Part shown: piece by piece, positions 453 to 15,025 of the stretch
How the letters are laid out: the number at the start of each line of letters is the position of its first letter
Numbering within the stretch: the first letter of the stretch is position 1
Origin: Promethearchaeota archaeon Loki_b31
GTDB taxonomy: Archaea > Asgardarchaeota > Lokiarchaeia > Sigyniarchaeales > SOKP01
NCBI GenBank assembly: GCA_005222975.1
Contig: NJBI01000005.1
Location: forward strand, 32,001 to 96,000
Reading direction: 5' to 3'
DNA length: 64,000 nt
Notes under the pieces: model-generated
What the model saw: only the letters and a program-made list of their open reading frames with translations
Databases searched by the model: none
What the model was told of the DNA's origin: nothing
Translations under genes and position numbers: made by a program

Positions 453-601
453 AATAAAAAAATTTATCTGAAATTAAAATTTTTCAACGATTTGCCATTC
501 TTACTAGTTATTTTTAAGAACTAGTTGATTTTTATAGATTTTGGATATTGCCAGAAAATCTTAAGAATAAAATTATAAGTGTAACTACTTTCTTATATTC
601 T

Positions 602-1309
602 ATGACTGAAGCATTATACATGAAAGATTCCTATTTAAAGAATTGGAACGCTAAAGTTGTTTCTGTAAAAGATGATAAATATATTATCCTTGATAAAACA
701 GCTTTCTATCCTAAAGGAGGTGGCCAACCATGGGACGAGGGTTATATAATTAAAGACGGTGATAAATTTAAGGTTGTTTATGTAGGTAAATTTTCTGGGG
801 AAATTAGCCACGAAGTAGAAAAACCGGGATTAAAAAAAGGAGACTTGGTTACATGCGAAATCGATTGGGAAAGGCGATATACCTATATGCGTTATCATAC
901 TGCTTGCCATCTCGTCTCAAATCTACTATTCCGAAGAGCGAACGCTAAAATCACAGGCAACCAGATTGAATTAGATAAAGCAAGAATGGATTTCTCAATG
1001 GAGGATTATTCTCCTGAGAAATTACATACTTATGTTAATGAAGCAAATGAAATTATCCAAAAAAATCTACCTGTTACAATTGGTTATTTATCTCGAGAAG
1101 AGGTTTTACAAAAACCAGAACTAGCTAGATTAGCAATAGGATTACCGAAAAACATTAAGGAATTTCGTATTATTAAAATTGGAGATATAGACGAACAAGT
1201 AGATGGTGGAACGCATGTTAAAAATTTGAATGAAATTGGCGAAATTGAAATCATTAAAACTGTTAATAAAGGAAAAAATAATCGAAGAATGTATTTTGTT
1301 ATAAAGTAA
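602..1309 (+). CDS. alaXM: Alanyl-tRNA editing protein AlaX-M
   Basis: FYPKGGGQPWDEG, MRYHTACH (HxxxH) and DGGTHV motifs. Start moved to ATG602 (MTEALY). Confidence 0.9.
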   Translation: MTEALYMKDSYLKNWNAKVVSVKDDKYIILDKTAFYPKGGGQPWDEGYIIKDGDKFKVVYVGKFSGEISHEVEKPGLKKGDLVTCEIDWERRYTYMRYHTACHLVSNLLFRRANAKITGNQIELDKARMDFSMEDYSPEKLHTYVNEANEIIQKNLPVTIGYLSREEVLQKPELARLAIGLPKNIKEFRIIKIGDIDEQVDGGTHVKNLNEIGEIEIIKTVNKGKNNRRMYFVIK

Positions 1310-1874: not shown

Positions 1875-2316
1875 TTAAAAAAAGATTCTAAGAAAATTAT
1901 CCACCACTTCAATTGTTTGATCTTCCCTACCTGACTTAGGAAAAACCTTATTTAATAAATAAGTTTCAATTTCCATCACATCAAGACCGACTAGCTTATT
2001 TTCTGCTGTTTTTATTATGTTGTTAATAATTTTAGCAGCACTAATGATAGTTGATTGATCAAGTCCTAGAACATTTCTAAATCGAGAAGCAATAATTTCT
2101 TTTAAAGCACCAACATCTACATCAAAGGACAGATAAAAATTTGATTTCAATGTATCCTTTAGGATTTGATTTAATTTATCTAGCATTTGTGAAGTTTCTG
2201 CTTTGGGTATGAATTTAACACCGTTTCTTTCCATTTTATCATAGAACTCAACAAATTCTACAATTCTTGGATCATTTAAAGCTCGATATTTTTGATCTGG
2301 ATAATCTTGACATCCT
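1875..2316 (-). pseudogene. N-terminally truncated arginase/ureohydrolase-family gene
   Basis: YLSFDVDV and GLDVMEI motifs. The frame extends upstream (GCQDYPDQKYRALNDPRIVEF) and hits TGA near 2330, so the N-terminal half is absent. Confidence 0.6.
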
Positions 2317-2758
2317 TTTAATTGGAGTCAATAAAAGTGAAATAGAAAATGATGAATTAAGGCAATTGTCTTTTATCTCCAATAGCATTGAGGGTTTTCT
2401 AATAAGAACAATTCCTCGGAGATTTTGGTGTAGAATAAGTTCCAATACATTACAACACAATTTTTCATTTGAATTTTTAGGAAATGCAATCTTTCATCTT
2501 TATCACCAAAAATTTGGAAATTTGATCAAAGCTATGGAAATATTCTTTATCAACACATATACAGATTCAATAGGACATTTCAAAGAAATCTCTTCCGAAA
2601 TAACAGCACAATTTGCCAAGAAATGGAAAGCCAAAATCGAAGAATGGAAAAAAAGGGTTGACTGTGAATATGCTTGGGCATGCCAAATTTGCCCCTATCG
2701 AGAAAACTGCTATTATGTTAAAGAAGTTCTAATTAAGAGAGAAGAATTAGGAAAATGA
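2267..2758 (+). pseudogene. Probably N-terminally truncated CdhC/ACS-like small protein
   Basis: EGFLIRTIPRRFWCRIS...SFEFLGNAI pattern and C-terminal Cys cluster (DCEYAWACQICPYRENC). Its 5' end overlaps the opposite-strand arginase fragment. Confidence 0.5.
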
Positions 2759-2857: not shown

Positions 2858-3835
2858 TTAAATGTTAAACATGTCGTCATACATATCGTCTTCTTCTCCC
2901 TCTTCTCCCTCTTCACCCTCTTCTAGTTCAACCCCGTACCAATATTGCTCTTGCGCTTTCGTCTTTCTTTTTATTTTCTTTCGTTCTTTGTATTTTGGTT
3001 TTTCGTCATAGCGTTTAGTATAAATTTTTTCGTATTTTGCTCTTAAAGCTTCTACATCTTCAACTTGTCCTATTTTCTCTTGTAAACCATCTTCAAAGAA
3101 ATAATTTCTTTTAAATTTTTTTGCTGGAATTCCTACGTAGATATAACCATCCTCGAGTTTTTGATCTACCGTTGTTATTGAATTAGCAGCTAAGACGCTT
3201 CTTTTTCCGATATAAGTACCAGGCATGATTATTGCGTGAGATCCAATTCTAACATCGTCTTCAATAATAGTTCTCTTAATTATGAGGAGATTACCGATAA
3301 TTACACTAGATTGTACAATTGCTCCTTGACCAACAACAACGTTTTTTCCGAACGAAATAAATTCAGTATCCACCCAGCCTTCAAATAAAGAGTTTGAAAA
3401 TTTTGTCTTTACACCGAACACTTTAAAGCAAATATTGTTTAAGAAAGGAAAAGGAAATCGATGACTTAACCAAAATGGCCATCTTTTTATTATATTCCTA
3501 ATACACCAATACCGATAATCCTTATCGCTTGGATGTCTTAAAAATATGCCAACTTGTGGCTTGTGAATGACATTAACGGCCATAAATAAGATTTTGGCAA
3601 TAAAAATTGCACTAAATACAAGGGTAATATACATTGGTAGAATTACAAGAGGTAGGAAAGTATAAAAGTGAATCGGTCTACTATAATTCCACAAAAATCG
3701 CCAATAAACCCAAAATTCTAAAAAAACAGGAATAAAACTGAACCAAACAATAATTAGATAGAAAAATAAATATCTTTTCTTTACTAAAACTGTCGGTATA
3801 AATGGACCTATGCGCATAGTATTAGGAATTGACAT
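2858..3835 (-). CDS. Membrane-anchored LbH (hexapeptide) acyltransferase-like protein, unit 3 of copy A
   Basis: Two TM segments, then hexapeptide repeats (GKNVVVGQGAIV; EDDVRIGSHAIIMPG) ending GIPAK. Paralog of 8060..8986. Confidence 0.8.
   Translation of the reverse strand: MSIPNTMRIGPFIPTVLVKKRYLFFYLIIVWFSFIPVFLEFWVYWRFLWNYSRPIHFYTFLPLVILPMYITLVFSAIFIAKILFMAVNVIHKPQVGIFLRHPSDKDYRYWCIRNIIKRWPFWLSHRFPFPFLNNICFKVFGVKTKFSNSLFEGWVDTEFISFGKNVVVGQGAIVQSSVIIGNLLIIKRTIIEDDVRIGSHAIIMPGTYIGKRSVLAANSITTVDQKLEDGYIYVGIPAKKFKRNYFFEDGLQEKIGQVEDVEALRAKYEKIYTKRYDEKPKYKERKKIKRKTKAQEQYWYGVELEEGEEGEEGEEDDMYDDMFNI
2890..2923. repeat. Imperfect 9-bp tandem repeat encoding EEGEEGEEGEE
   Basis: tcttctccc tcttctccc tcttcaccc tcttc visible in the sequence. 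Confidence 0.75.
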
Positions 3836-3837
3836 TT

Positions 3838-5676
3838 CTACCCTTCATTATTTTCCGTTTTTATTAATTTCTTTTTATCCTCATCAATATTAACTTCGTG
3901 TGTCATCTCAACTTTCACTTGCTCGTCAACATCGCGCTTTATTATAATATCTCTTCTCTCTTCGGCATATTTATTTTCTTTAAGTTTAATTCCGGGAATT
4001 CCAAAATATATCCAATTTGGTTCTAAAATTTGATTATATGTAGTTGTACTGATAGCGCCCATAACCGAATCGTGTCCCATTATCGTGCCAGGCGCGATAG
4101 TGGTGTGACCACCAATCATAACATAATCGTCAAATATAACCTTTTTAATTATTAAGTATTTGCCGACTACCATTGAGGACATTATTGTTGCTCCTTGTCC
4201 AATTAAATTATTTCGCCCAAAGTTTACAAATTCGGCATCGCACCACGCATCGTTTAAATGACTCGAAAGATCCATATTTATTCCAAACCATTTAAACGCT
4301 ATTACATCTACCCAGGAAAATGGAGAATTTCTAATTAGCCAGAGGCTGATCTTTTTTAGTTCTGTTCTCAACATCCAAAACTCGTAATCTTTATCTCCAA
4401 TTTCAGCGATAAAAATACCTTCTCGCGGTTTATGTATTAAATTTACAAGAATTAAAAGCAATTTACTAAAAAATAACACTCCGAAGATGAATATGTACAA
4501 CATAGAAAAGATTGCGACTGGTAAAAACAAAATCATTATTAACCCAAAATATCGTGTACATTCATACCAATAAATCGCAACTAATAAACCGCTTAACCAG
4601 AAAATGGGAATATATACTGCCAAAAATTTAACATTTACTCTGCTAATAGCGCTACTAGTAGTAAAATCTAATGCTAGATCTTCTTTTGTAAGACTCTCTA
4701 TATCAACTGGTTCTTCTTTTTCCTGCTTAATCGTAAAATCTTCTTCAAGTTCTTCTTTAATTTTTTCTTTAGTTTTGTCTTTTTTATTTTTTGTAATAAA
4801 ATCATTAAGAGAATCGTTTCGCTCTAAGTCTTCAGGTGTCAAACCTAAATAATCCATAATTTTTTTTTTAAAAATTTTTCGCAGGGGGATTCCTACATAA
4901 TATTTCCCTCCTTTTAATACGCTGTGTTTCGTACATGAAGCTAAGGGTAATAAAAAAGAATCTTTGCCAATTTCGGTTCCTGGACCTATTTGATTCATCG
5001 CAGCGAGGGTAACGTTGTCTTTCAGCTTTATTTCGAAATAGGATATGTTCCCGAAGATGCCCTGCACTAAATGAGACGCTAACGTAGAGTTTACGCCGAT
5101 ATAACAGTTTTTCCCAACATCAATGAATTTATCTGATCCAACAGATTCTTCAATTGTGGACCCTTTTCCAATTTTGCTTGAGCGGGTAAAATTAAAAAAC
5201 CAATTGGAAAGCCAAGGGATCATTCCTTTGGTAAATACATTTTTTCCATATTTTATCATGAAACTTCTCATATGATAATAATTTGCCGTCTTACTTTGTA
5301 TGTTTCTTGGGATTATTCCATTTTTTGAAGGGGACATTTTTTCAGTAATACTCCAACACAATTTTGTTGCTAATCCAATGAATAATAGGTGTATAAGATA
5401 ACAAACTATTATTAAAAGCGGCATTAAAATCAATGAGAGGAGGGGATACAGTTCTGTGAAAAGCATAACAAAATTGCTGGTTTCTAAAAAGTATTTTCGA
5501 AAAATCATAAAAAAATATGCCATTAAGATAATACCAGGGATTATCCAAGAGGAATAGTAAATAACAGCAAATATCAATATGTAGATTTTAAATTGTATTT
5601 TCACGGTTTCTTTAATAACGGCTTCTTGAGAATCCTCTGATTCATCCAATGATTCTGGTTTTATTTTTTCAACCAT
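3838..5676 (-). CDS. Fused units 1+2 membrane LbH protein, copy A
   Basis: Two [2TM+LbH] modules joined by a charged linker. The N-half matches 9897..10847 and the C-half (DFTTSSAI...) matches 8983..9894. Confidence 0.85.
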   Translation of the reverse strand: MVEKIKPESLDESEDSQEAVIKETVKIQFKIYILIFAVIYYSSWIIPGIILMAYFFMIFRKYFLETSNFVMLFTELYPLLSLILMPLLIIVCYLIHLLFIGLATKLCWSITEKMSPSKNGIIPRNIQSKTANYYHMRSFMIKYGKNVFTKGMIPWLSNWFFNFTRSSKIGKGSTIEESVGSDKFIDVGKNCYIGVNSTLASHLVQGIFGNISYFEIKLKDNVTLAAMNQIGPGTEIGKDSFLLPLASCTKHSVLKGGKYYVGIPLRKIFKKKIMDYLGLTPEDLERNDSLNDFITKNKKDKTKEKIKEELEEDFTIKQEKEEPVDIESLTKEDLALDFTTSSAISRVNVKFLAVYIPIFWLSGLLVAIYWYECTRYFGLIMILFLPVAIFSMLYIFIFGVLFFSKLLLILVNLIHKPREGIFIAEIGDKDYEFWMLRTELKKISLWLIRNSPFSWVDVIAFKWFGINMDLSSHLNDAWCDAEFVNFGRNNLIGQGATIMSSMVVGKYLIIKKVIFDDYVMIGGHTTIAPGTIMGHDSVMGAISTTTYNQILEPNWIYFGIPGIKLKENKYAEERRDIIIKRDVDEQVKVEMTHEVNIDEDKKKLIKTENNEG

Positions 5677-5859
5677 TTTTTATCATGTGAAAAGTAATGA
5701 TAAGCTAATAGATAAATTCTTTTTATTATTTACTCAGTCAAATATTACACATTAGTAAAATAGATATGTTTTTTACTTTTTAAATTTATATTAACAACAA
5801 AACAGCCAAAACGATTAAGAGCTAACCTTAATATCACACAAACTAATAGAAAAAATAAC

Positions 5860-6258
5860 ATGAAGAATAGATGTGAAGATTGTGGAAATTGCTGTATCGA
5901 GACAGAGATGATTCTCTCTGACCAAGACATCGAAGCTATCGTTAGTAGTCATAAAACAACCTTAAGAAAAACAGATTTTGTACAAAAAAATGAAGATAAC
6001 TTTAATCAATTAAAAAATTTTAACGGACATTGCTTCTTTTTCGATGGAGAAACAAAATTATGTAAAATTTACGAGATAAGACCTCAAGGATGCCGATTTT
6101 ATCCTTTAATTTACGATTCAGATAAGAAATCATGTGTTTTTGATAGCGAATGTCCACGACCAGAACTTTTTTATCCAAATAAGAATACAGTTCGAAGAAC
6201 TTGCAAAAAGATAATAAGTTTCTTAGAGAACCAAGTAATTTTTTCTAAATTACGATAA
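5860..6258 (+). CDS. YkgJ-family (CxxCxxCC) cysteine cluster protein
   Basis: CEDCGNCC, CFFFD, CKIYEIRPQGCRFYP motifs. Confidence 0.85.
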   Translation: MKNRCEDCGNCCIETEMILSDQDIEAIVSSHKTTLRKTDFVQKNEDNFNQLKNFNGHCFFFDGETKLCKIYEIRPQGCRFYPLIYDSDKKSCVFDSECPRPELFYPNKNTVRRTCKKIISFLENQVIFSKLR

Positions 6259-7252
6259 TAGTTTTTATATAATCTCGGTTTTTCTCGTAAGAAACAAAAG
6301 CTTCTTGAATATAATTTAACGCATACTCTTTAGAAATTAATCCTTTAACCTTAACTTTTCCTGAACTTAACCCTTCAATAGCTTTATCAAAGGGACCACA
6401 TCTACTGCTGTAAATAGTAATTTCCCTGACCACAATATCGGTAAAATTAATTAGAGTTTCTAACCCGTGAGTACTTTTTATGTGGACTTTTCCACGCGTT
6501 TTACACGAAGAAACAACATCCTTTAGGGCATCTAGGTTTCCTGTAGTATCAACAACGATATCAGCTCCAATGTCTTTTGTTAATTCTCTAATTTCAGTTT
6601 GTATATCTTTTACATTCAAACGATTAATTGAATAGTGTGCGCCAAACTTTTTAGCTAAGGCAAGTTTTTTATCTGAACCGTCAATTACAATTAACTTTAA
6701 TCCTTTTAATAACGCAACTTGAGTTAGCAATAAGCCTAACTTTCCAAGACCAAAAATTGCAACAAATTTATCGTCTTTTTCTATAGGCATCATTTCAAAA
6801 GTTTGATAGGCTGCGGCTAACGGTTCGATAAAGGTAGCTTCTTCGTAAGAAATCTTTTTCGGTAATTCGTGTATCAAATAAGACTCGACAGCAATGAACT
6901 CCGCGAACGCTCCATTGATATCGATCCCTAAAGCTTTTCTAGAGATACATTGTGTAAACATGTCTCGTTTACAATAATAACATTCAAAATCAATGTTACT
7001 ATTAATTTCTGAAGTCACTCGTTTACCTAGCCAAGTGCGGGCTACATTTTTCCCTACTTCTACAATTTCACCAGCAAATTCGTGCCCTAATATGAGTGGG
7101 ATGGTAGTTGGAAGATATCCACTTACTATTGCTATATCCGTGCCACAAATTCCCACAGCTTTTACTTGGATTAAAACTTGAGAATCCTCAGGCTCAGGTT
7201 TAGACACTTCTTTAATAGCAATTTTGTGCCCATCAAATACAGCAGCTTTCAT
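6245..7252 (-). CDS. Zn-dependent medium-chain alcohol/polyol dehydrogenase
   Basis: GICGTD, LGHEFAG, EPLA and GLGKLG motifs. Start placed at MKAAVFDG (7252). Confidence 0.9.
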   Translation of the reverse strand: MKAAVFDGHKIAIKEVSKPEPEDSQVLIQVKAVGICGTDIAIVSGYLPTTIPLILGHEFAGEIVEVGKNVARTWLGKRVTSEINSNIDFECYYCKRDMFTQCISRKALGIDINGAFAEFIAVESYLIHELPKKISYEEATFIEPLAAAYQTFEMMPIEKDDKFVAIFGLGKLGLLLTQVALLKGLKLIVIDGSDKKLALAKKFGAHYSINRLNVKDIQTEIRELTKDIGADIVVDTTGNLDALKDVVSSCKTRGKVHIKSTHGLETLINFTDIVVREITIYSSRCGPFDKAIEGLSSGKVKVKGLISKEYALNYIQEAFVSYEKNRDYIKTIIVI

Positions 7253-7271
7253 GTTTTGAATCTTTTTAAGA

Positions 7272-8057
7272 TTATTGAAGATAGAACTCTGGTCTTCTAT
7301 CATTTAGTATATCATTATAACTATTAAGTTTTTTATCTCTTGTGTGGATTACATCAATTTCTATAAATTTAATATAGACTTTATCCATTGGTGCGGACGA
7401 GAGTATGTCCCCATTATAAGACGTGATTTGGCTTCCCCCCGTAAACTTAAAATCGTCTTCTCCCCTTACTTCGTTGCCAATTCTGTTAGAAGTTACAGCA
7501 AAAACGCGATTTACCAAACAATGAGTAGTCATAGCTTTTTGGCAATACGGAAGTACTAAGTTAGCGGGATGCGCAATGATATCGGCTCCAAGAAGCGTGA
7601 GCGTACGAATTGTCTCCGGAAAAAACCAATCGAAACAAATCATTATTCCGATTTTCACATTGTTTACTTCATAAATTCGTAAAGGCTTGTTTCCAGGAGA
7701 GAACCATAGGCGTTCTTTATAGTATAGATGGATTTTCCTATATGTGCCAATAACTTCATTTTTTGAAACTATCATCGCAGAATTGAATATTTCATCGCCA
7801 TCTTTCTCAATAAATCCTCCAATTACGACCCCACCTGTATCTTTTGATAATTTCTTTAGAAATTGAGCGGTTTGCCCGTTAATGTCTTCCGCTAAGGATT
7901 CAGCTTCTTTTTTAGAAATGAAAGCGTAACCTGTTGCGAAAAGTTCAGGTAATACAATTAAATCTGCTTTGGTATTGCTTAATAAAATCGTTACTTGTTC
8001 AAAGTTTTGAGTTTTTTCGCTAAAGGTTGGAGAGGTTTGAACATAACCAATTTTCAT
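7272..8057 (-). CDS. Nitrilase / carbon-nitrogen hydrolase family amidase
   Basis: LPELF, YRKIHL and ICFDWFFPE give the E-K-C triad. Confidence 0.9.
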   Translation of the reverse strand: MKIGYVQTSPTFSEKTQNFEQVTILLSNTKADLIVLPELFATGYAFISKKEAESLAEDINGQTAQFLKKLSKDTGGVVIGGFIEKDGDEIFNSAMIVSKNEVIGTYRKIHLYYKERLWFSPGNKPLRIYEVNNVKIGIMICFDWFFPETIRTLTLLGADIIAHPANLVLPYCQKAMTTHCLVNRVFAVTSNRIGNEVRGEDDFKFTGGSQITSYNGDILSSAPMDKVYIKFIEIDVIHTRDKKLNSYNDILNDRRPEFYLQ

Positions 8058-8059
8058 GA

Positions 8060-8986
8060 TTAATCCTTTTCTTCAGTTTTTTCTATAGTTATTTCTTCGG
8101 ATTTTTCTTTTCTTATGTGAATTCTTCTTTCTTTGAGAGGTATTTTTTTTTTAACTTGCCGTTTAACATATTGTTCGTCGTATTTCTTTAATAATCCGTC
8201 AAGGTCTCCAATGGTTTTAGTAAGTTTTTCGAGTGGAATGTCTTCGAAAAATCTATTTTTCTTGAATTTTTTCGCAGGACCCCCATTGTACACCCAACCT
8301 TCTTCTAGTTCTTGACCTACCATTGTAGACGACCAAGTGTTTAAAATACAGTTTTTTCCTATATGGGTGCCTGGCATAATTATTATATGTGCGCCTATTC
8401 TAACGTTTTCTTCAATGATAGTTTTTTTAATGATTAAAAAGTTTCCTATAATAACTGAAGATTGTATTATAGCGCCCTGGCCAACAACTACATTTTTACC
8501 GAACTCAATATATTCAGTATCCACCCAACCTTCAAAAAGCGAGTTAGAAAATTTTGTTTTTACACCAAATACCTTGAAACAAATATTGTCTAAAAATGGA
8601 AAGGGAAATTTATGCGCGAGCCAGGTTGGCCACTTTTTAATTGTATTTCTAAGACTCCAATATCTATAATCCTTGTCTGCGGGATCCCTTAGAAAAACGC
8701 CTTCTCTTGGTTTGTGAAAAACATTAACTATAATTAATAAAATTTTAGCAAAGAATATCGCAGCAAACACGGTTGTGATGTACATTACAATGAAAAAAAG
8801 AGGTAAAAACACGTAGAAATGAAGTGGTCTTATATCATACCACAACATTTGCCAATACCACCAAATTTCCAATATCGCAGGAAGTAGACTTATCCATATT
8901 AAAAAAATATACATAAGCAGATACTTTTTCTTAGCCAGTACGGTTGCACAAAAAGGACCTATGCGCATTGAATTCGGAACGCTCAC
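8060..8986 (-). CDS. Membrane LbH protein, unit 3 of copy B
   Basis: 2TM plus hexapeptide repeats; shares long identical stretches with 2858..3835 (FKVFGVKTKFSNSLFEGWVDTE). Confidence 0.8.
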   Translation of the reverse strand: MSVPNSMRIGPFCATVLAKKKYLLMYIFLIWISLLPAILEIWWYWQMLWYDIRPLHFYVFLPLFFIVMYITTVFAAIFFAKILLIIVNVFHKPREGVFLRDPADKDYRYWSLRNTIKKWPTWLAHKFPFPFLDNICFKVFGVKTKFSNSLFEGWVDTEYIEFGKNVVVGQGAIIQSSVIIGNFLIIKKTIIEENVRIGAHIIIMPGTHIGKNCILNTWSSTMVGQELEEGWVYNGGPAKKFKKNRFFEDIPLEKLTKTIGDLDGLLKKYDEQYVKRQVKKKIPLKERRIHIRKEKSEEITIEKTEEKD

Positions 8987-9894
8987 TTTTTAACGCCTCC
9001 CTTTTTTCTTCTAAATAAATGTTTTTTATCTTCGTCGATATTAACTTCGTGCTCTACCTCAATTTTTTCTTCTTCGTCAACATCTACTTTTTGTATAATA
9101 TCTCTTCTCATTTCAGCGTATTGATTAGGTTTTAATTTTCTAGCCGGAATACCTGAATATATCCACCCGTCTTCTAGTTTTTGATTAAGAGTGGTAACTG
9201 ATACCGCACCTAAAACAGTATCTTTTCCAAAGTGAGTTCCAGGGGCAATCGTGCTCTGCCCTCCAATAAGAGCGAAATCTTCGAAAGTTATTCTTTTAAT
9301 GATTAGATAATTACCTACTACCATTGAGCTCATTATTACTGCCCCTTGACCGATAGTTACGTTGCTTCCAAACTTAATAAATTCAGCGTCACACCAGGCA
9401 TCGTTCAAGTGGCTTGAGAAATCCATACTTACTCCAAACCAACGAAATGCTATTACATCTATCCAAGGTAAAGGCCAGTTTCTTATTAGCCACAAAACAA
9501 TCTTCTTTATTTCGGTTCTTAACCTCCAAAATTCAAAATCCGTGTCTCCCTTCTCAGTTCGGAATATTCCTTCTTTGGGAAGGTGAATTAAATTTATTAA
9601 AATTAACAGAAGCTTACTAAAAAAGAAGCAACTAATAATAAATAGAAATGTGAACGCTAACAATAAAAGTGGTAAAAATAACAATTTAATTATCCATGGT
9701 AGTTTGCTTACAGTGTAGCCGTACCAAAAAGTTGCTACAATAATACCTGAAAACCAAAAAATTGGTAAATATACTATTAAAAACTTAAGACTAACTCTGT
9801 TTATAGCAGAACTTGTAGTAAAATCAATATTAAAGTCAGAGTCATCATCTATGTTTTCAGGACCTTTATTTTCATCTTCTATAGTTTCAGCCAT
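8983..9894 (-). CDS. Membrane LbH protein, unit 2 of copy B
   Basis: DFTTSSAI and SSHLNDAWCDAEF are shared with the C-half of 3838..5676. Confidence 0.8.
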   Translation of the reverse strand: MAETIEDENKGPENIDDDSDFNIDFTTSSAINRVSLKFLIVYLPIFWFSGIIVATFWYGYTVSKLPWIIKLLFLPLLLLAFTFLFIISCFFFSKLLLILINLIHLPKEGIFRTEKGDTDFEFWRLRTEIKKIVLWLIRNWPLPWIDVIAFRWFGVSMDFSSHLNDAWCDAEFIKFGSNVTIGQGAVIMSSMVVGNYLIIKRITFEDFALIGGQSTIAPGTHFGKDTVLGAVSVTTLNQKLEDGWIYSGIPARKLKPNQYAEMRRDIIQKVDVDEEEKIEVEHEVNIDEDKKHLFRRKKGGVKK

Positions 9895-9896
9895 TT

Positions 9897-10847
9897 TTAT
9901 CTCACGCCTTTATTTTTTATTTTTTTTTCATTTTTTTCAGCTTCTTTTTTTATCCTCTCTAACTTTGCGTTTTCTTGCTTAACTCTTAAGTCTTCAGCCT
10001 GAACTAAATTATCTTCGTTAACCTTTAAATAATCCATAATTTTCTTTTTAAATATTCTACGCAAAGGCAAGCCAAAGTAGTAATTATTTCCTTTTAACAA
10101 ATTATGCTTAGTTGCTGCTGCCATTGGCAATAGATAGGAATTATCTCTTAGGTCGCAACCAGGGGCAATGTTATTAAAACCCCCTAAAGTAACATTTTCT
10201 CCTAGCTTTATTTCAAAGTACACAATATTTCCGAAAATCCCCTCAACAAAATGGCTAGAGAGTGCCGAATTAACGCCAATATAGCAGTTTTTTCCGATGT
10301 TTACATTTCTATCCGTAACTACTGATTCTTCGAGCGTAGAACCCTTTTTAATTACGCTGGTTCCTACAAAATTAAAAAACCAATTTGCTAACCAAGGAAA
10401 TATTCCTTTCATGAAAGCATTTTTTCCGTATTTAATCATAAAGGATCTTATATGGTATAAATTAGCAGTTTTAGAAGGGATGTTTCTTGGAATAATGCCA
10501 TCTTTACTAGGTGAAATTTTTTCCGTATATCTCCAGATAATTCGCGAGATCAAACCTACTAAAAATAAGTGGATCAAATAGCTCACAATAAGAACTAACG
10601 GTAAGGCTAAAAAAGATAGTAAAGAATCAAGGTTCGTAAAGACAACAAACAGGTTATCTACCCTTAAAAAGAGTGGGATAAAAACTAATAAGACATACGC
10701 CATAAAAACAATTCCCGGTATTAAATATGAACAATAGTATATAACAAAAAAGATACTCAAATACCAATGGAATTGGAGTTTAATTTTTTCTTTAGCAACT
10801 TCACCATCAGAGTCACTCATATCAGGCGGTTCAATTTCGTCTAACAT
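9897..10847 (-). CDS. Membrane LbH protein, unit 1 of copy B
   Basis: GIIPRNI, RSFMIKYGKN and GKNCYIGVNS..SH.V.GIFGNI are shared with the N-half of 3838..5676. Confidence 0.8.
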   Translation of the reverse strand: MLDEIEPPDMSDSDGEVAKEKIKLQFHWYLSIFFVIYYCSYLIPGIVFMAYVLLVFIPLFLRVDNLFVVFTNLDSLLSFLALPLVLIVSYLIHLFLVGLISRIIWRYTEKISPSKDGIIPRNIPSKTANLYHIRSFMIKYGKNAFMKGIFPWLANWFFNFVGTSVIKKGSTLEESVVTDRNVNIGKNCYIGVNSALSSHFVEGIFGNIVYFEIKLGENVTLGGFNNIAPGCDLRDNSYLLPMAAATKHNLLKGNNYYFGLPLRRIFKKKIMDYLKVNEDNLVQAEDLRVKQENAKLERIKKEAEKNEKKIKNKGVR

Positions 10848-11296: not shown

Positions 11297-14200
11297 ATGT
11301 CTGAAAATTCGTTTTCATTAGTAGATTTGTATCCAAAATATGTAATAAACTCGAAAGGAGAAAAGAAAAAATTCGAAGTTACTAACATAGCAAAAGTATT
11401 AAACAAAGAAACTGGTCTTGATATGCACATTGCGGAAAAAGTTACAGAAGATGTAGTTCGAATAATTATTGGTCTAGGAGTTGATGAGATCACTACTAAT
11501 TACATTAGAGAATTAGTATGTGTCGAGCTAACCCAACGAGGTTTAAATAAATACCGAAATCTATTCGCCCGAGCTATCAATTTGGAAAACATATCTTTCA
11601 CGTTAGACGACAATTTTATTGCTAAATTTATAGGGAAACAACCTGATTGGGGGCCTTTAGGGCACATCACATACAAAAGAACTTACGCCAGAGTTGTAGA
11701 AGGAGAGAACAGAAAAGAAGAATTCTGGGAAACGATCAAAAGAGTTGTCGAAGGTTGTTATTCAATCCAAAAAGAGCACTGCATTAAGTTAAGTTTACCT
11801 TGGACCGATGCTAAAGCTCAGAATTCTGCTCAAATAATGTATGAAAAAATCTGGAATTTTAAGTTTTTACCTCCAGGAAGAGGTCTTTGGATGATGGGGA
11901 CCGAATTTATCGCACGTCACGGTTCCATGTCGCTTAATAACTGTGGTTTTGCCTCTACCGACGATATTAACTTAAAATACTCGAAAGCGTTTCAATTTGT
12001 GATGGATGCGCTAATGTTGGGTGTGGGGGTAGGTTTTGATACGAAAGGAGCGGGTAAAATTACAATTAAAAAACCTATAGAAGATCATTTTACTTTTCAA
12101 ATACCCGATAGTAGAGAAGGTTGGGTGGAAGCACTTAAACTTGTTATAGAAGCGTATTTTTTAGGTAAGCGAATTCCAAAGTTTGATTTTAGCTTAATCA
12201 GGTCTGCAGGTCAGCCAATTAGAGGCTTTGGAGGGATTGCCAGCGGTCCAGACCCTTTAAAGGATATGTTGATGAATATTCAAAAGATTTTAGAAGCTCG
12301 AATTGGTCAATCAATAAGTTCACTTGACATTTTGGATATTATGAATCTCATTGGAAAATGCGTCGTCGCTGGAAATGTTAGGCGTAGTGCTGAGATTGCA
12401 TTAGGGGAAGCCACCGATTTAGAGTTTATAAAGTGCAAACAAGACAAAGAAAAACTTTATTCGCATAGATGGGCAAGCAATAACAGTATATTTGCAAAAA
12501 AAGGATTAGACTATTCTTTCATAGCAGATCAGATTTCCGTGAATGGAGAACCGGGAATTCTTTGGTTAGAAAACGCAAAAGCGTATTCTCGAATGGGAAA
12601 CCCACCAGACCATAAAGATAAGAAAGCTGCGGGCGTGAACCCTTGCATTACAGGTGATACATTGATTGCTGTCGCTGATGGTAGGAATGCTGTAGCAATA
12701 AAACTATTGGCAGAAGAAGGAAACGATGTTCCTGTGTACTGTAAAGATGATAAAGGATTAACAGTAATAAGAATGATGAGAAATCCAAGAATTACAGGCT
12801 ATAATGAGAAAATATATGAAGTAAAATTGGATGATGATAGTATAATAAAATGCACAGGAAATCATAAGTTTATTTTAAGGAATAAAACATCTAAAGAAGC
12901 TAGAGAATTAAGAAATGGAGATAGTCTAATGATAACGCCAAAATGGCAGACAACTTGGGCAGAGATAATGGGAGAAGAAAAGAAGAAAAGATCAATTTAT
13001 TGGATGTTAAATAATGGAATGAAAAATACTTTCGAACATTCATTTATTTATGAACAATTTAATAAATGTAAAATTCCCAGTGGGTATGTTCTCCATCATA
13101 AAGACAAGGATGGTTTGAATAATAGAAAAAGTAATTTAGAACTTATGCTAAAGGATGATCATGATTCTTTACACGATATATCAGGTGATAAAAATCCTAT
13201 GCGTATTTGGTATCCCCATGCTACTCCTGAAGAAAAACAACAATATCATCAAAGGATGTCGAAAGCTACTTCCGGTACCAAAAACCCAAGATATTCTGGA
13301 ATCTCTAATGAGCAAATTTATAATGAGATGATTTCCTATATCAAAAGAACAAATGAACCATTAACTATTCCCGCTTGGAAAGAATATTCAAAAGAAATAG
13401 GATTAATATCTTCTTTTACTGAATTTCGTGGTTCATTATTGAATTTCATTAAAAGAGCGAATATTGAATCTGGATTTGAACATTTAGATAACCCAGCTCT
13501 AATGAGAGAATATAAAAAATATATTAATTTACTGAAAGAAAGCGATCTTGAGTTAATTTTTGAAGATGGTATGTTTGTTGTAAAATATTGTGCATTATGT
13601 AGAAGGGAATTTAAAGTAAAATATGGCAGACGAGAGCAAGCTTATTGTTCACATAAATGTGCTAATAAAATAGCTGCAATTAAGGCAGGCGCAGCGATGA
13701 AAAATAAAGGAAAAAGAAATCAACAAGAAGCTAGAAGAAAATTATGTCAATTATTTGCTCAATATATTTATGAACAAAATGAGGTTCCTCAGTTAGCTGA
13801 TTTCTTAAAGTTTATTAAAGAAAATGGAATCAACGATTTTAGAACTGCTGGAATCTATAAAGGTTATCAATATGTAATGGATAAGATCACTGAGAAATAT
13901 GTTTGTCAAAGAATCTCTGTTCGCTCATTAAGTAAACATCAGTATAGGCAACAAATGGCACTAAAACTAAAAGACTGTGGTCTATCTTATAACCATAAAG
14001 TTGTATCAGTTAATTATATTGGGGAAACTACAGTTTATAACGGCACAGTCGATGATTTCCATAATTATGGAATTATTCTAACTGAAAAAGAAACTAAATC
14101 AGGTAGACCAAAACTTGAAATGATTTTTACTGCGAATTGCGGAGAACAAACACTAGAGTCATTCGAGCTTTGTTGTTTGGTTGAAACCTTCCCTTCAAGG

Positions 14201-15025
14201 CATGAATCATACGAAGAGTATCAAAACACTCTAAAGTACGCTTATTTGTATGCCAAATCTGTTACGCTCGTAAATACGCATTGGCAAGAAACTAACGCAG
14301 TGATGCTTAAGAATAGGCGAATGGGAATTTCACAAACAGGAATAATTGAAGCTTTTGTGAAATATGGGAGAAGGACTATATTAGACTGGTGCGATAAAGG
14401 CTATAAATATTTACGAGAATTGGACGAGGAATATTCTGATTGGTTGTGCGTCCCAAAATCGATAAAAATTACTACGGTTAAACCGAGCGGAACCGTTAGC
14501 TTACTTCCGGGAGTCACTCCTGGAATTCATTATCCTCATTCAGAATACTATATTAGAAGAATTCGCATTTCGAAGAATTCTGATTTGATAGAACCCATTA
14601 AAAACGCGGGTTATCGCATAGAGGACGATTCTTATTCTCCTAATACTATTGTAGTCGAATTTCCCGTCCACGAACAATTATTTGAACGTTCCAAGGACGA
14701 TGTTTCCATATGGGAACAAGCGGAAAATGCCGCAGACTATCAAAAATATTGGTCCGACAACCAAGTATCAATTACGATTACATTTAAGCAAGACGAGGCA
14801 AAACAGATTAAACACGTGCTGGAGTGCTTTGAAGATAAGCTAAAAAGCGTGAGTTTTTTACCGATTAAAGAACACGGTTACAAACAAGCTCCTTACGAAG
14901 AAATCACAAAAGAAAAATTCGAGGAAATGGTTTCAAAACTTAAACCTTTAGATTTGGATAAAACAAAAGATAGAGCAATAGGAAGTAAGTTTTGTGATTC
15001 GGAGGCTTGTGAAATTAAGCTTTAA
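11297..15025 (+). CDS. nrdJ: Adenosylcobalamin-dependent (class II) ribonucleotide reductase with N-terminal ATP-cone and an intein
   Basis: KRTYAR, PPGRGLW, NNC, GNVRRSAEI, NP|CGEQ, TTVKPSGT and C-terminal CDSEAC motifs. Confidence 0.93.
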   Translation: MSENSFSLVDLYPKYVINSKGEKKKFEVTNIAKVLNKETGLDMHIAEKVTEDVVRIIIGLGVDEITTNYIRELVCVELTQRGLNKYRNLFARAINLENISFTLDDNFIAKFIGKQPDWGPLGHITYKRTYARVVEGENRKEEFWETIKRVVEGCYSIQKEHCIKLSLPWTDAKAQNSAQIMYEKIWNFKFLPPGRGLWMMGTEFIARHGSMSLNNCGFASTDDINLKYSKAFQFVMDALMLGVGVGFDTKGAGKITIKKPIEDHFTFQIPDSREGWVEALKLVIEAYFLGKRIPKFDFSLIRSAGQPIRGFGGIASGPDPLKDMLMNIQKILEARIGQSISSLDILDIMNLIGKCVVAGNVRRSAEIALGEATDLEFIKCKQDKEKLYSHRWASNNSIFAKKGLDYSFIADQISVNGEPGILWLENAKAYSRMGNPPDHKDKKAAGVNPCITGDTLIAVADGRNAVAIKLLAEEGNDVPVYCKDDKGLTVIRMMRNPRITGYNEKIYEVKLDDDSIIKCTGNHKFILRNKTSKEARELRNGDSLMITPKWQTTWAEIMGEEKKKRSIYWMLNNGMKNTFEHSFIYEQFNKCKIPSGYVLHHKDKDGLNNRKSNLELMLKDDHDSLHDISGDKNPMRIWYPHATPEEKQQYHQRMSKATSGTKNPRYSGISNEQIYNEMISYIKRTNEPLTIPAWKEYSKEIGLISSFTEFRGSLLNFIKRANIESGFEHLDNPALMREYKKYINLLKESDLELIFEDGMFVVKYCALCRREFKVKYGRREQAYCSHKCANKIAAIKAGAAMKNKGKRNQQEARRKLCQLFAQYIYEQNEVPQLADFLKFIKENGINDFRTAGIYKGYQYVMDKITEKYVCQRISVRSLSKHQYRQQMALKLKDCGLSYNHKVVSVNYIGETTVYNGTVDDFHNYGIILTEKETKSGRPKLEMIFTANCGEQTLESFELCCLVETFPSRHESYEEYQNTLKYAYLYAKSVTLVNTHWQETNAVMLKNRRMGISQTGIIEAFVKYGRRTILDWCDKGYKYLRELDEEYSDWLCVPKSIKITTVKPSGTVSLLPGVTPGIHYPHSEYYIRRIRISKNSDLIEPIKNAGYRIEDDSYSPNTIVVEFPVHEQLFERSKDDVSIWEQAENAADYQKYWSDNQVSITITFKQDEAKQIKHVLECFEDKLKSVSFLPIKEHGYKQAPYEEITKEKFEEMVSKLKPLDLDKTKDRAIGSKFCDSEACEIKL
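12644..14137 (+). mobile_element. Intein (498 aa) with HNH homing endonuclease, in the NrdJ NPCxE active-site motif
   Basis: Starts CITGDTLIAV after GVNP; block B CTGNHKF; HHKDKDGLNNRKSNL; block F VYNGTVDDFHNY; ends TAN followed by +1 Cys. Confidence 0.92.

Follow-up and report, generated by a model that had tools for sequence, protein, structure and literature searches.

Acetyltransferases of the maltose and galactoside type (MAT/GAT), which belong to the left-handed beta-helix (LbH) superfamily, carry a His on a loop leaving the beta-helix; this residue acts as the general base, and the active site is located between two subunits. Pls polymerises diamino acids via isopeptide bonds, and YvoF is the heptaprenylglyceryl/archaeol O-acetyltransferase of Bacillus and Halobacteria. 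The latter enzyme places acetyl groups on ether lipids of the archaeal type in Bacillus and Haloferax (PMC9179154); in Bacillus it also loads an acetyl carrier lipid (PMC12345273). The terminal domain of PosA has been modelled as three beta-helices standing over six bent helices; that publication gives a model only (PMC10522769), and no solved structure of a Pls-type terminal domain was found. LbH proteins are also known as heterotrimers that play a structural part and have a single active site or none, the gamma-carbonic anhydrase of plant mitochondrial complex I being a membrane LbH heterotrimer with one of its three interfaces active (PMC8290278). The locus analysed here is located in a stretch of 64,000 nucleotides from Promethearchaeota archaeon Loki_b31 (contig NJBI01000005.1, positions 32,001 to 96,000), hereafter the window. 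Five minus-strand open reading frames (ORFs) encode six units, each composed of a transmembrane (TM) hairpin, a linker and an LbH, and are arranged in two sets, A and B, with the same 1-2-3 order (Table 1). Each set is proposed to form one membrane-embedded LbH acyltransferase containing one copy each of subunits 1, 2 and 3. The complete reading, a single-site heterotrimeric LbH transferase using acyl-coenzyme A (acyl-CoA) as donor and a membrane lipid as acceptor, is given a probability of about 0.55; its architectural part, a single-site acyl-CoA transferase, is considered highly probable.

Every unit has a pair of hydrophobic segments, a linker containing P-x-E/K-G, a helical stretch in which an Arg is conserved, hexapeptide coils matching Pfam Hexapep and a terminal G-x-P; a conserved Y-H-x-R motif is found in the linker of set B type 1. 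Counterparts from the two sets are 57% (type 1), 63% (type 2) and 63% (type 3) identical, as compared to 36-41% between types 2 and 3 and about 21-26% between type 1 and types 2/3 over the full length. An earlier note, made from the letters of this DNA alone, had described five genes with six modules in two sets of the same order, each unit being closest to its counterpart in the other set; both statements were confirmed, with all ORFs recovered on the minus strand. Within a set, consecutive genes are separated by a 2 bp gap or overlap by 4 bp, and the genes of each set are translationally coupled. The two-set layout is also present in related genomes and is therefore no assembly artefact; misassembly was rejected on this ground. 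Six further units are encoded in the same genome, which is 92% complete: a 3-1 fusion with a type 2 unit (contig C82), a pair (C17) and a single unit (C64). Close homologues are labelled mostly as Promethearchaeota or Lokiarchaeota. Units were found in 68/68 genomes of the family to which this archaeon belongs and in 7/7 of the sister family. Complete genomes from this order that consist of a single contig encode 5-7 units each. All Lokiarchaeia family genomes that were searched contain units, frequently as several sets; they would therefore represent a core membrane activity, so far without annotation, of these archaeal relatives of eukaryotes.

The evidence for a single active site comes from the distribution of the catalytic-position His. 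The units were sorted into types by similarity, independently of this residue, which is present in 32/32 type 1, 0/35 type 2 and 0/36 type 3 units. At this locus the putative catalytic residues are His199 of set B type 1 (codon 10253-10251) and His202 of the set A 1-2 fusion (codon 5073-5071). Natural fusions join the units in a constant cyclic order, with 1-2 (135), 3-1 (8) and 3-1-2 (6 sequences, two clusters) among the matches listed, and none in the opposite order among them. The third unit of the 3-1-2 fusions is type-2-like in the tree described below, and a 3-1-2 triple from Promethearchaeota (P0121, 797 amino acids) displays the His pattern -H-. A 715-amino-acid protein devoid of family match is encoded directly upstream of both triple-fusion genes (L099:2905-5052).

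The heterotrimer was modelled as a 1:2:3 complex, CoA being included and left unscored. It obtained a score of 0.81, as compared to 0.22 for the best control, and passed a mark that is reached by 58/80 solved pairs and 2/110 mismatched pairs; 84% or more of the contacts are common to the runs, with a partner predicted local distance difference test (pLDDT) value of at least 78. The type 3 loop is predicted to pack on type 1 residues 160-164 and 191 and therefore, by pseudo-symmetry, the His loop of type 1 should pack on type 2. Type 2 units contain invariant D165, W167 and Q183, and have G-G and G-A-x-S motifs at positions occupied by L-P in type 1. We infer that a single site works, between subunits 1 and 2, where the His loop of subunit 1 would meet an acyl-CoA-binding face supplied by subunit 2, the other two interfaces being degenerate; type 3 is probably a structural third subunit. 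Such a site fits the abundance of 1-2 fusions, including extra ones that have no type 3 gene of their own. A 1:1:1 heterotrimer with one active site is thus well supported, the heterotrimer having been anticipated by the earlier note, by the His pattern, the cyclic fusion order and the complex scores.

The units resemble those of the Pls and PosA terminal domain. A profile of the Asgard units matches C1, C2 and C3 of the Pls family across both the TM and LbH parts, with independent E-values down to 6e-24, and much of the top 150 in a search of 1.84 billion representatives is made up of Pls-type proteins. TIGR02353 (Pls/PosA) is the best NCBIfam match for 3/5 proteins and the second for the set A 1-2 fusion, set B type 1 giving no match. 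The AlphaFold2 model of type 1 has a hairpin of long helices, a linker of two helices and a beta-helix (best pLDDT 88; 62-66 for the monomer models of the other four proteins) and superimposes on a predicted Pls/PosA structure from the Atlas with a template modelling score of 0.75. Among solved folds, the closest ones identified by Foldseek are maltose and galactoside O-acetyltransferases, and sequence and fold searches of the PDB returned soluble LbH proteins only. Judging from the profiles, whole units are homologous to the C-terminal domain repeats of Pls/PosA, and the likeness to Pls C1-C3 already suspected from the letters is borne out. Both systems combine a TM pair, a helical linker and an LbH unit, with three units per enzyme and one His per three; the Pls/PosA domain is likewise predicted to be a pseudo-trimer above six helices (PMC10522769), and six membrane helices under three beta-helices would be present in each Asgard complex. 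The Asgard genes differ in being separate or partly fused, without adenylation (A) or thiolation (T) domain and without phosphopantetheinyl transferase (PPTase); as was noted before, the ORFs hold only TM+LbH units. Only the His is common to the Pls C3 motif Q-T-H-L-F-E-D-R and to the corresponding S-H-x-V-E-G-I-F-G of type 1.

YvoF (NF058585) is the top NCBIfam match of the set A 1-2 fusion, over the LbH region only. It too is a membrane-associated LbH transferase of the MAT/GAT branch that uses acetyl-CoA and acts on isoprenoid ether lipid substrates (PMC9179154), but it is encoded by a single gene whose product of about 170 amino acids is too short for the TM hairpins of the Asgard units. 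As far as these profile comparisons go, the family is a member of the LbH acyltransferase superfamily that is neither TIGR02353, the cut-off of which was passed by 0/151 Asgard genomes, nor YvoF. By analogy, its most likely working mode is that of a MAT/GAT/YvoF-type acyl-CoA transferase built on a Pls-like membrane bundle. Gamma-carbonic anhydrase was considered and rejected: it is a zinc enzyme or scaffold without TM hairpins, its zinc-ligand His triad is missing from the type consensus of the Asgard units, and NF050158 matches are weak. Literature searches returned no description of the present family in archaea, in agreement with the earlier note, which knew of none.

With respect to the donor, no PP-binding (PCP/ACP) domain, no PPTase/ACPS and no over-cutoff A domain of non-ribosomal peptide synthetases (NRPS) was found in this 92% complete genome, and about 18 AMP-forming acyl-CoA-ligase-like genes are present. 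PPTase domains occur in only 9/71 genomes of the family, sporadically and mostly inside ORFs of about 3500 amino acids. A protein-bound donor supplied in trans is therefore unlikely, and the suggestion that a polyamide is made with a carrier or adenylation domain acting in trans is not supported. As to an aminoacyl-tRNA donor, an AlaX-type editing gene is located close by, but to our knowledge no LbH enzyme uses tRNA. Acyl-CoA, the usual donor of the LbH branch, is by analogy the default; it would most likely be cytoplasmic acyl-CoA, acetyl or longer, with the His as general base. The ORFs of about 3500 amino acids with a PPTase (ACPS) domain, seen in several Lokiarchaeia genomes (L095-L098; G225 C19, G094, G246, G109, G213, G207), are possibly type I fatty acid synthase/polyketide synthase-like megasynthases.

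The origin of the three types was addressed with a tree of 168 units, a quick LG+G4 reconstruction of divergent sequences that has no firm root. The C1-C3 units of Pls, together with related NRPS-terminal units, form their own clade (Shimodaira-Hasegawa-like approximate likelihood-ratio test, SH-aLRT, 98), and types 2 and 3 of Loki fall within the Asgard units that carry the His. Forcing types 2/3 with Pls C1/C2 is rejected by the approximately unbiased (AU) test (p=0.008); grouping type 1 with Pls C3 is neither rejected nor favoured (AU p=0.13). A derivation from a split Pls is opposed by both the tree and the AU test, and was rejected. According to both, the subunits without His and Pls C1/C2 have separate origins, in which respect the two systems differ. 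Triples without A/T domains also exist in bacteria (e.g. Elusimicrobiota, P0131-P0139); they likewise consist of three TM+LbH units, but as a single chain, in most of which the middle unit alone has the His, and form a separate clade (SH-aLRT 97). Such triple units are thus not an archaea-only feature. One of the bacterial triples is fused to a short-chain dehydrogenase/reductase (SDR). In Pls-type proteins the His is found in C3 only in 48/58 long triples, and the layout with one His per three has evolved at least 3 times; it is therefore no indication of polymerisation. A blastn comparison of an Asgard locus with plasmids gave no match.

A simpler state is found in another Asgard family, termed f9, in which exactly one unit is present in 35/37 genomes with a full-length unit and the His is kept in 32/32 units examined. 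A single His-bearing gene implies a homotrimer, as which the f9 unit presumably works, and the single-gene forms indicate at the sequence level that one unit can work alone. Units occurring singly, which the earlier note had named as evidence against its proposal, are thus found in f9, and this objection applies in part. The Asgard series runs from a single gene through a His/His-less pair and the 1:2:3 triad to a triple fusion, and points to one His site per trimer. It suggests a division of labour inside Lokiarchaeia in parallel to Pls; the triad would have originated by duplication from a single-gene homotrimer still kept by other Asgard archaea, and its one-His-per-three layout would have been reached in parallel with that of Pls. 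The Asgard proteins without A/T domains could serve as small targets for a one-site test of a Pls-type domain, the f9 single-copy gene being the minimal one.

The acceptor was approached through the genomic context of the single-gene relatives. The f9 units, about 45-65% identical across genera, adjoin a gene of the geranylgeranyl-reductase (GGR) family in 30/30 loci (L107-L136), 29 of which were scored head-to-head; the top NCBIfam match of the one f9 unit tested is YvoF. In family f24 (L142-L165), which has one or two TM+LbH genes per cluster, GGR is head-to-head in 2 loci, and other units are accompanied by a UbiA prenyltransferase (adjacent in 8 loci), a class V aminotransferase and a major facilitator superfamily (MFS) transporter. 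These clusters of TM+LbH, UbiA, aminotransferase and MFS genes may correspond to a prenyl-lipid pathway. By analogy, the GGR/UbiA context and the membrane-embedded site favour a lipid acceptor, although nothing at this locus shows a lipid. As for YvoF, the acyl group would go to a hydroxyl of a lipid in the membrane, probably one of the isoprenoid ether type or a related prenyl lipid; of the options raised at first, lipid acylation is thus the one favoured by the evidence, and acylation of a glycan ranks as a rival. Acylation of ether lipids, if true, especially with fatty acids, would bear on the lipid-divide question.

The glycan option is the most probable of the rivals, but clearly less probable than the lipid one. 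The same heterotrimer, with acyl-CoA as donor, would in this case acylate a glycan at the surface or linked to a lipid, or else N-acylate an amine such as an amino-lipid, a polyamine or a protein; the neighbouring carbon-nitrogen hydrolase would be the matching deacylase. In favour of it, this hydrolase, adjacent to set B, is kept in 9 loci, sugar O- and N-acetyltransferases (WcaF, HpsU, NeuD/PglB) are among the LbH relatives, Pls itself forms amides, and a class V aminotransferase adjoins f24 units. The bacterial triples (L100-L104; P0131, P0132, P0139, P0133) moreover adjoin glycosyltransferase, nucleotide-sugar, GMC oxidoreductase, SDR, acyl-CoA ligase or EamA-pair genes, of which the glycosyltransferase, nucleotide-sugar and EamA-pair genes point in the same direction. 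However, no glycosylation cluster surrounds the sets, the hydrolase link is mostly that of set B of one genus, and the best-conserved neighbour of any relative is the GGR-family gene. A more far-reaching form of the chemistry is unlikely: transfer of fatty acyl groups from acyl-CoA onto isoprenoid lipids of archaea, giving hybrid ester/ether or storage lipids, or carrier-free polymerisation of CoA-thioesters, the single-gene homotrimer then being a minimal model of the Pls condensation domain. A stand-alone polymerase, the main idea of the earlier note, in the form of a Pls-like module making polyamide or polyester from aminoacyl- or hydroxyacyl-thioesters in trans, agrees with the whole-unit homology and fold similarity to Pls, with the one-His-per-three layout and with the many acyl-CoA ligases that could supply hydroxyacyl-CoA, but is very improbable given the lack of carrier, PPTase and NRPS A domain in the genome, the Pls C3 motif not kept beyond its His, the separation of the His-less Loki units from Pls C1/C2 and a layout that is uninformative on polymerisation.

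A number of observations weigh against the lipid-acylating heterotrimer as proposed. The type 1 His, which we take to be catalytic, was assigned by alignment and by analogy with GAT/MAT enzymes. The success of the complex model may reflect a resemblance to solved LbH trimers; close cousins pass the complex test as well, and the comparison covered the 1:2:3 complex and its controls. In some genomes additional 1-2 fusions lack a neighbouring type 3 gene, and the complete genomes available for the sister family contain His/His-less pairs and no triads, so that the 1:1:1 composition is not universal. Scores to TIGR02353 (37-46 bits for a curated cut-off of 423) and to YvoF (at most 58 bits for a cut-off of 300) are far below the cut-offs. 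The relatives that supply the GGR link are distant (about 20-30% identical) and have a single gene, and the adjacency corresponds to one or two ancestral events rather than to 30 independent cases. Lastly, no lipid-synthesis gene was found among the neighbours in the window or at other Lokiarchaeia sets.

Table 1. Subunit genes of the two sets and adjacent genes in the window.
Feature	Position	Strand	Remarks
Set B type 1 subunit	9897..10847	-	316 aa (amino acids); TM hairpin, helical linker and LbH
Set B type 2 subunit	8983..9894	-	303 aa; Ser replaces the putative catalytic His
Set B type 3 subunit	8060..8986	-	308 aa; GTG start; no catalytic His
Carbon-nitrogen hydrolase (nitrilase/amidase family)	7272..8057	-	2 bp downstream of set B
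Zn-dependent medium-chain dehydrogenase	6245..7303	-	Between both sets; true start probably 17 codons later
YkgJ-type CxxCxxCC protein	5860..6258	+	Divergent from set A; recurs as a neighbour
Set A natural type 1-type 2 fusion	3838..5676	-	612 aa, two units
Set A type 3 subunit	2858..3835	-	325 aa; acidic C-terminal tail

The neighbours of Lokiarchaeia sets are otherwise variable: the carbon-nitrogen hydrolase, the Zn dehydrogenase, the YkgJ-type gene and an AlaX-type editing gene close to the sets (window 548-1309) recur only among close kin. The link of the hydrolase to set B is uncertain because it is kept there mainly within the genus, and that of the Zn dehydrogenase and YkgJ-type protein to the sets is putative. 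Two short relic-like ORFs occupy window 1875-2758, one of 119 amino acids resembling by eye the C-terminus of the arginase family, with no Pfam match, and a fragment of 163 amino acids with a weak match to CdhC/acetyl-CoA synthase beta. On the other side, divergent from set B, window 11297-15025 (+) encodes a class II (B12) ribonucleotide reductase with an intein carrying an HNH endonuclease; a ribonucleotide reductase gene is upstream of the sets in two relatives too. Elsewhere in the genome, the lone His-bearing unit of contig C64 is near glycerophosphodiester phosphodiesterase genes (L073:3311-7228), and the matching unit of genome G213 (L076) adjoins such a gene, near a glycerol-3-phosphate oxidase cluster. 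A two-domain PlsC-type (PF01553) acyltransferase is also encoded in the same genome as the window (C61:64188-65366), with a third PF01553 gene nearby.

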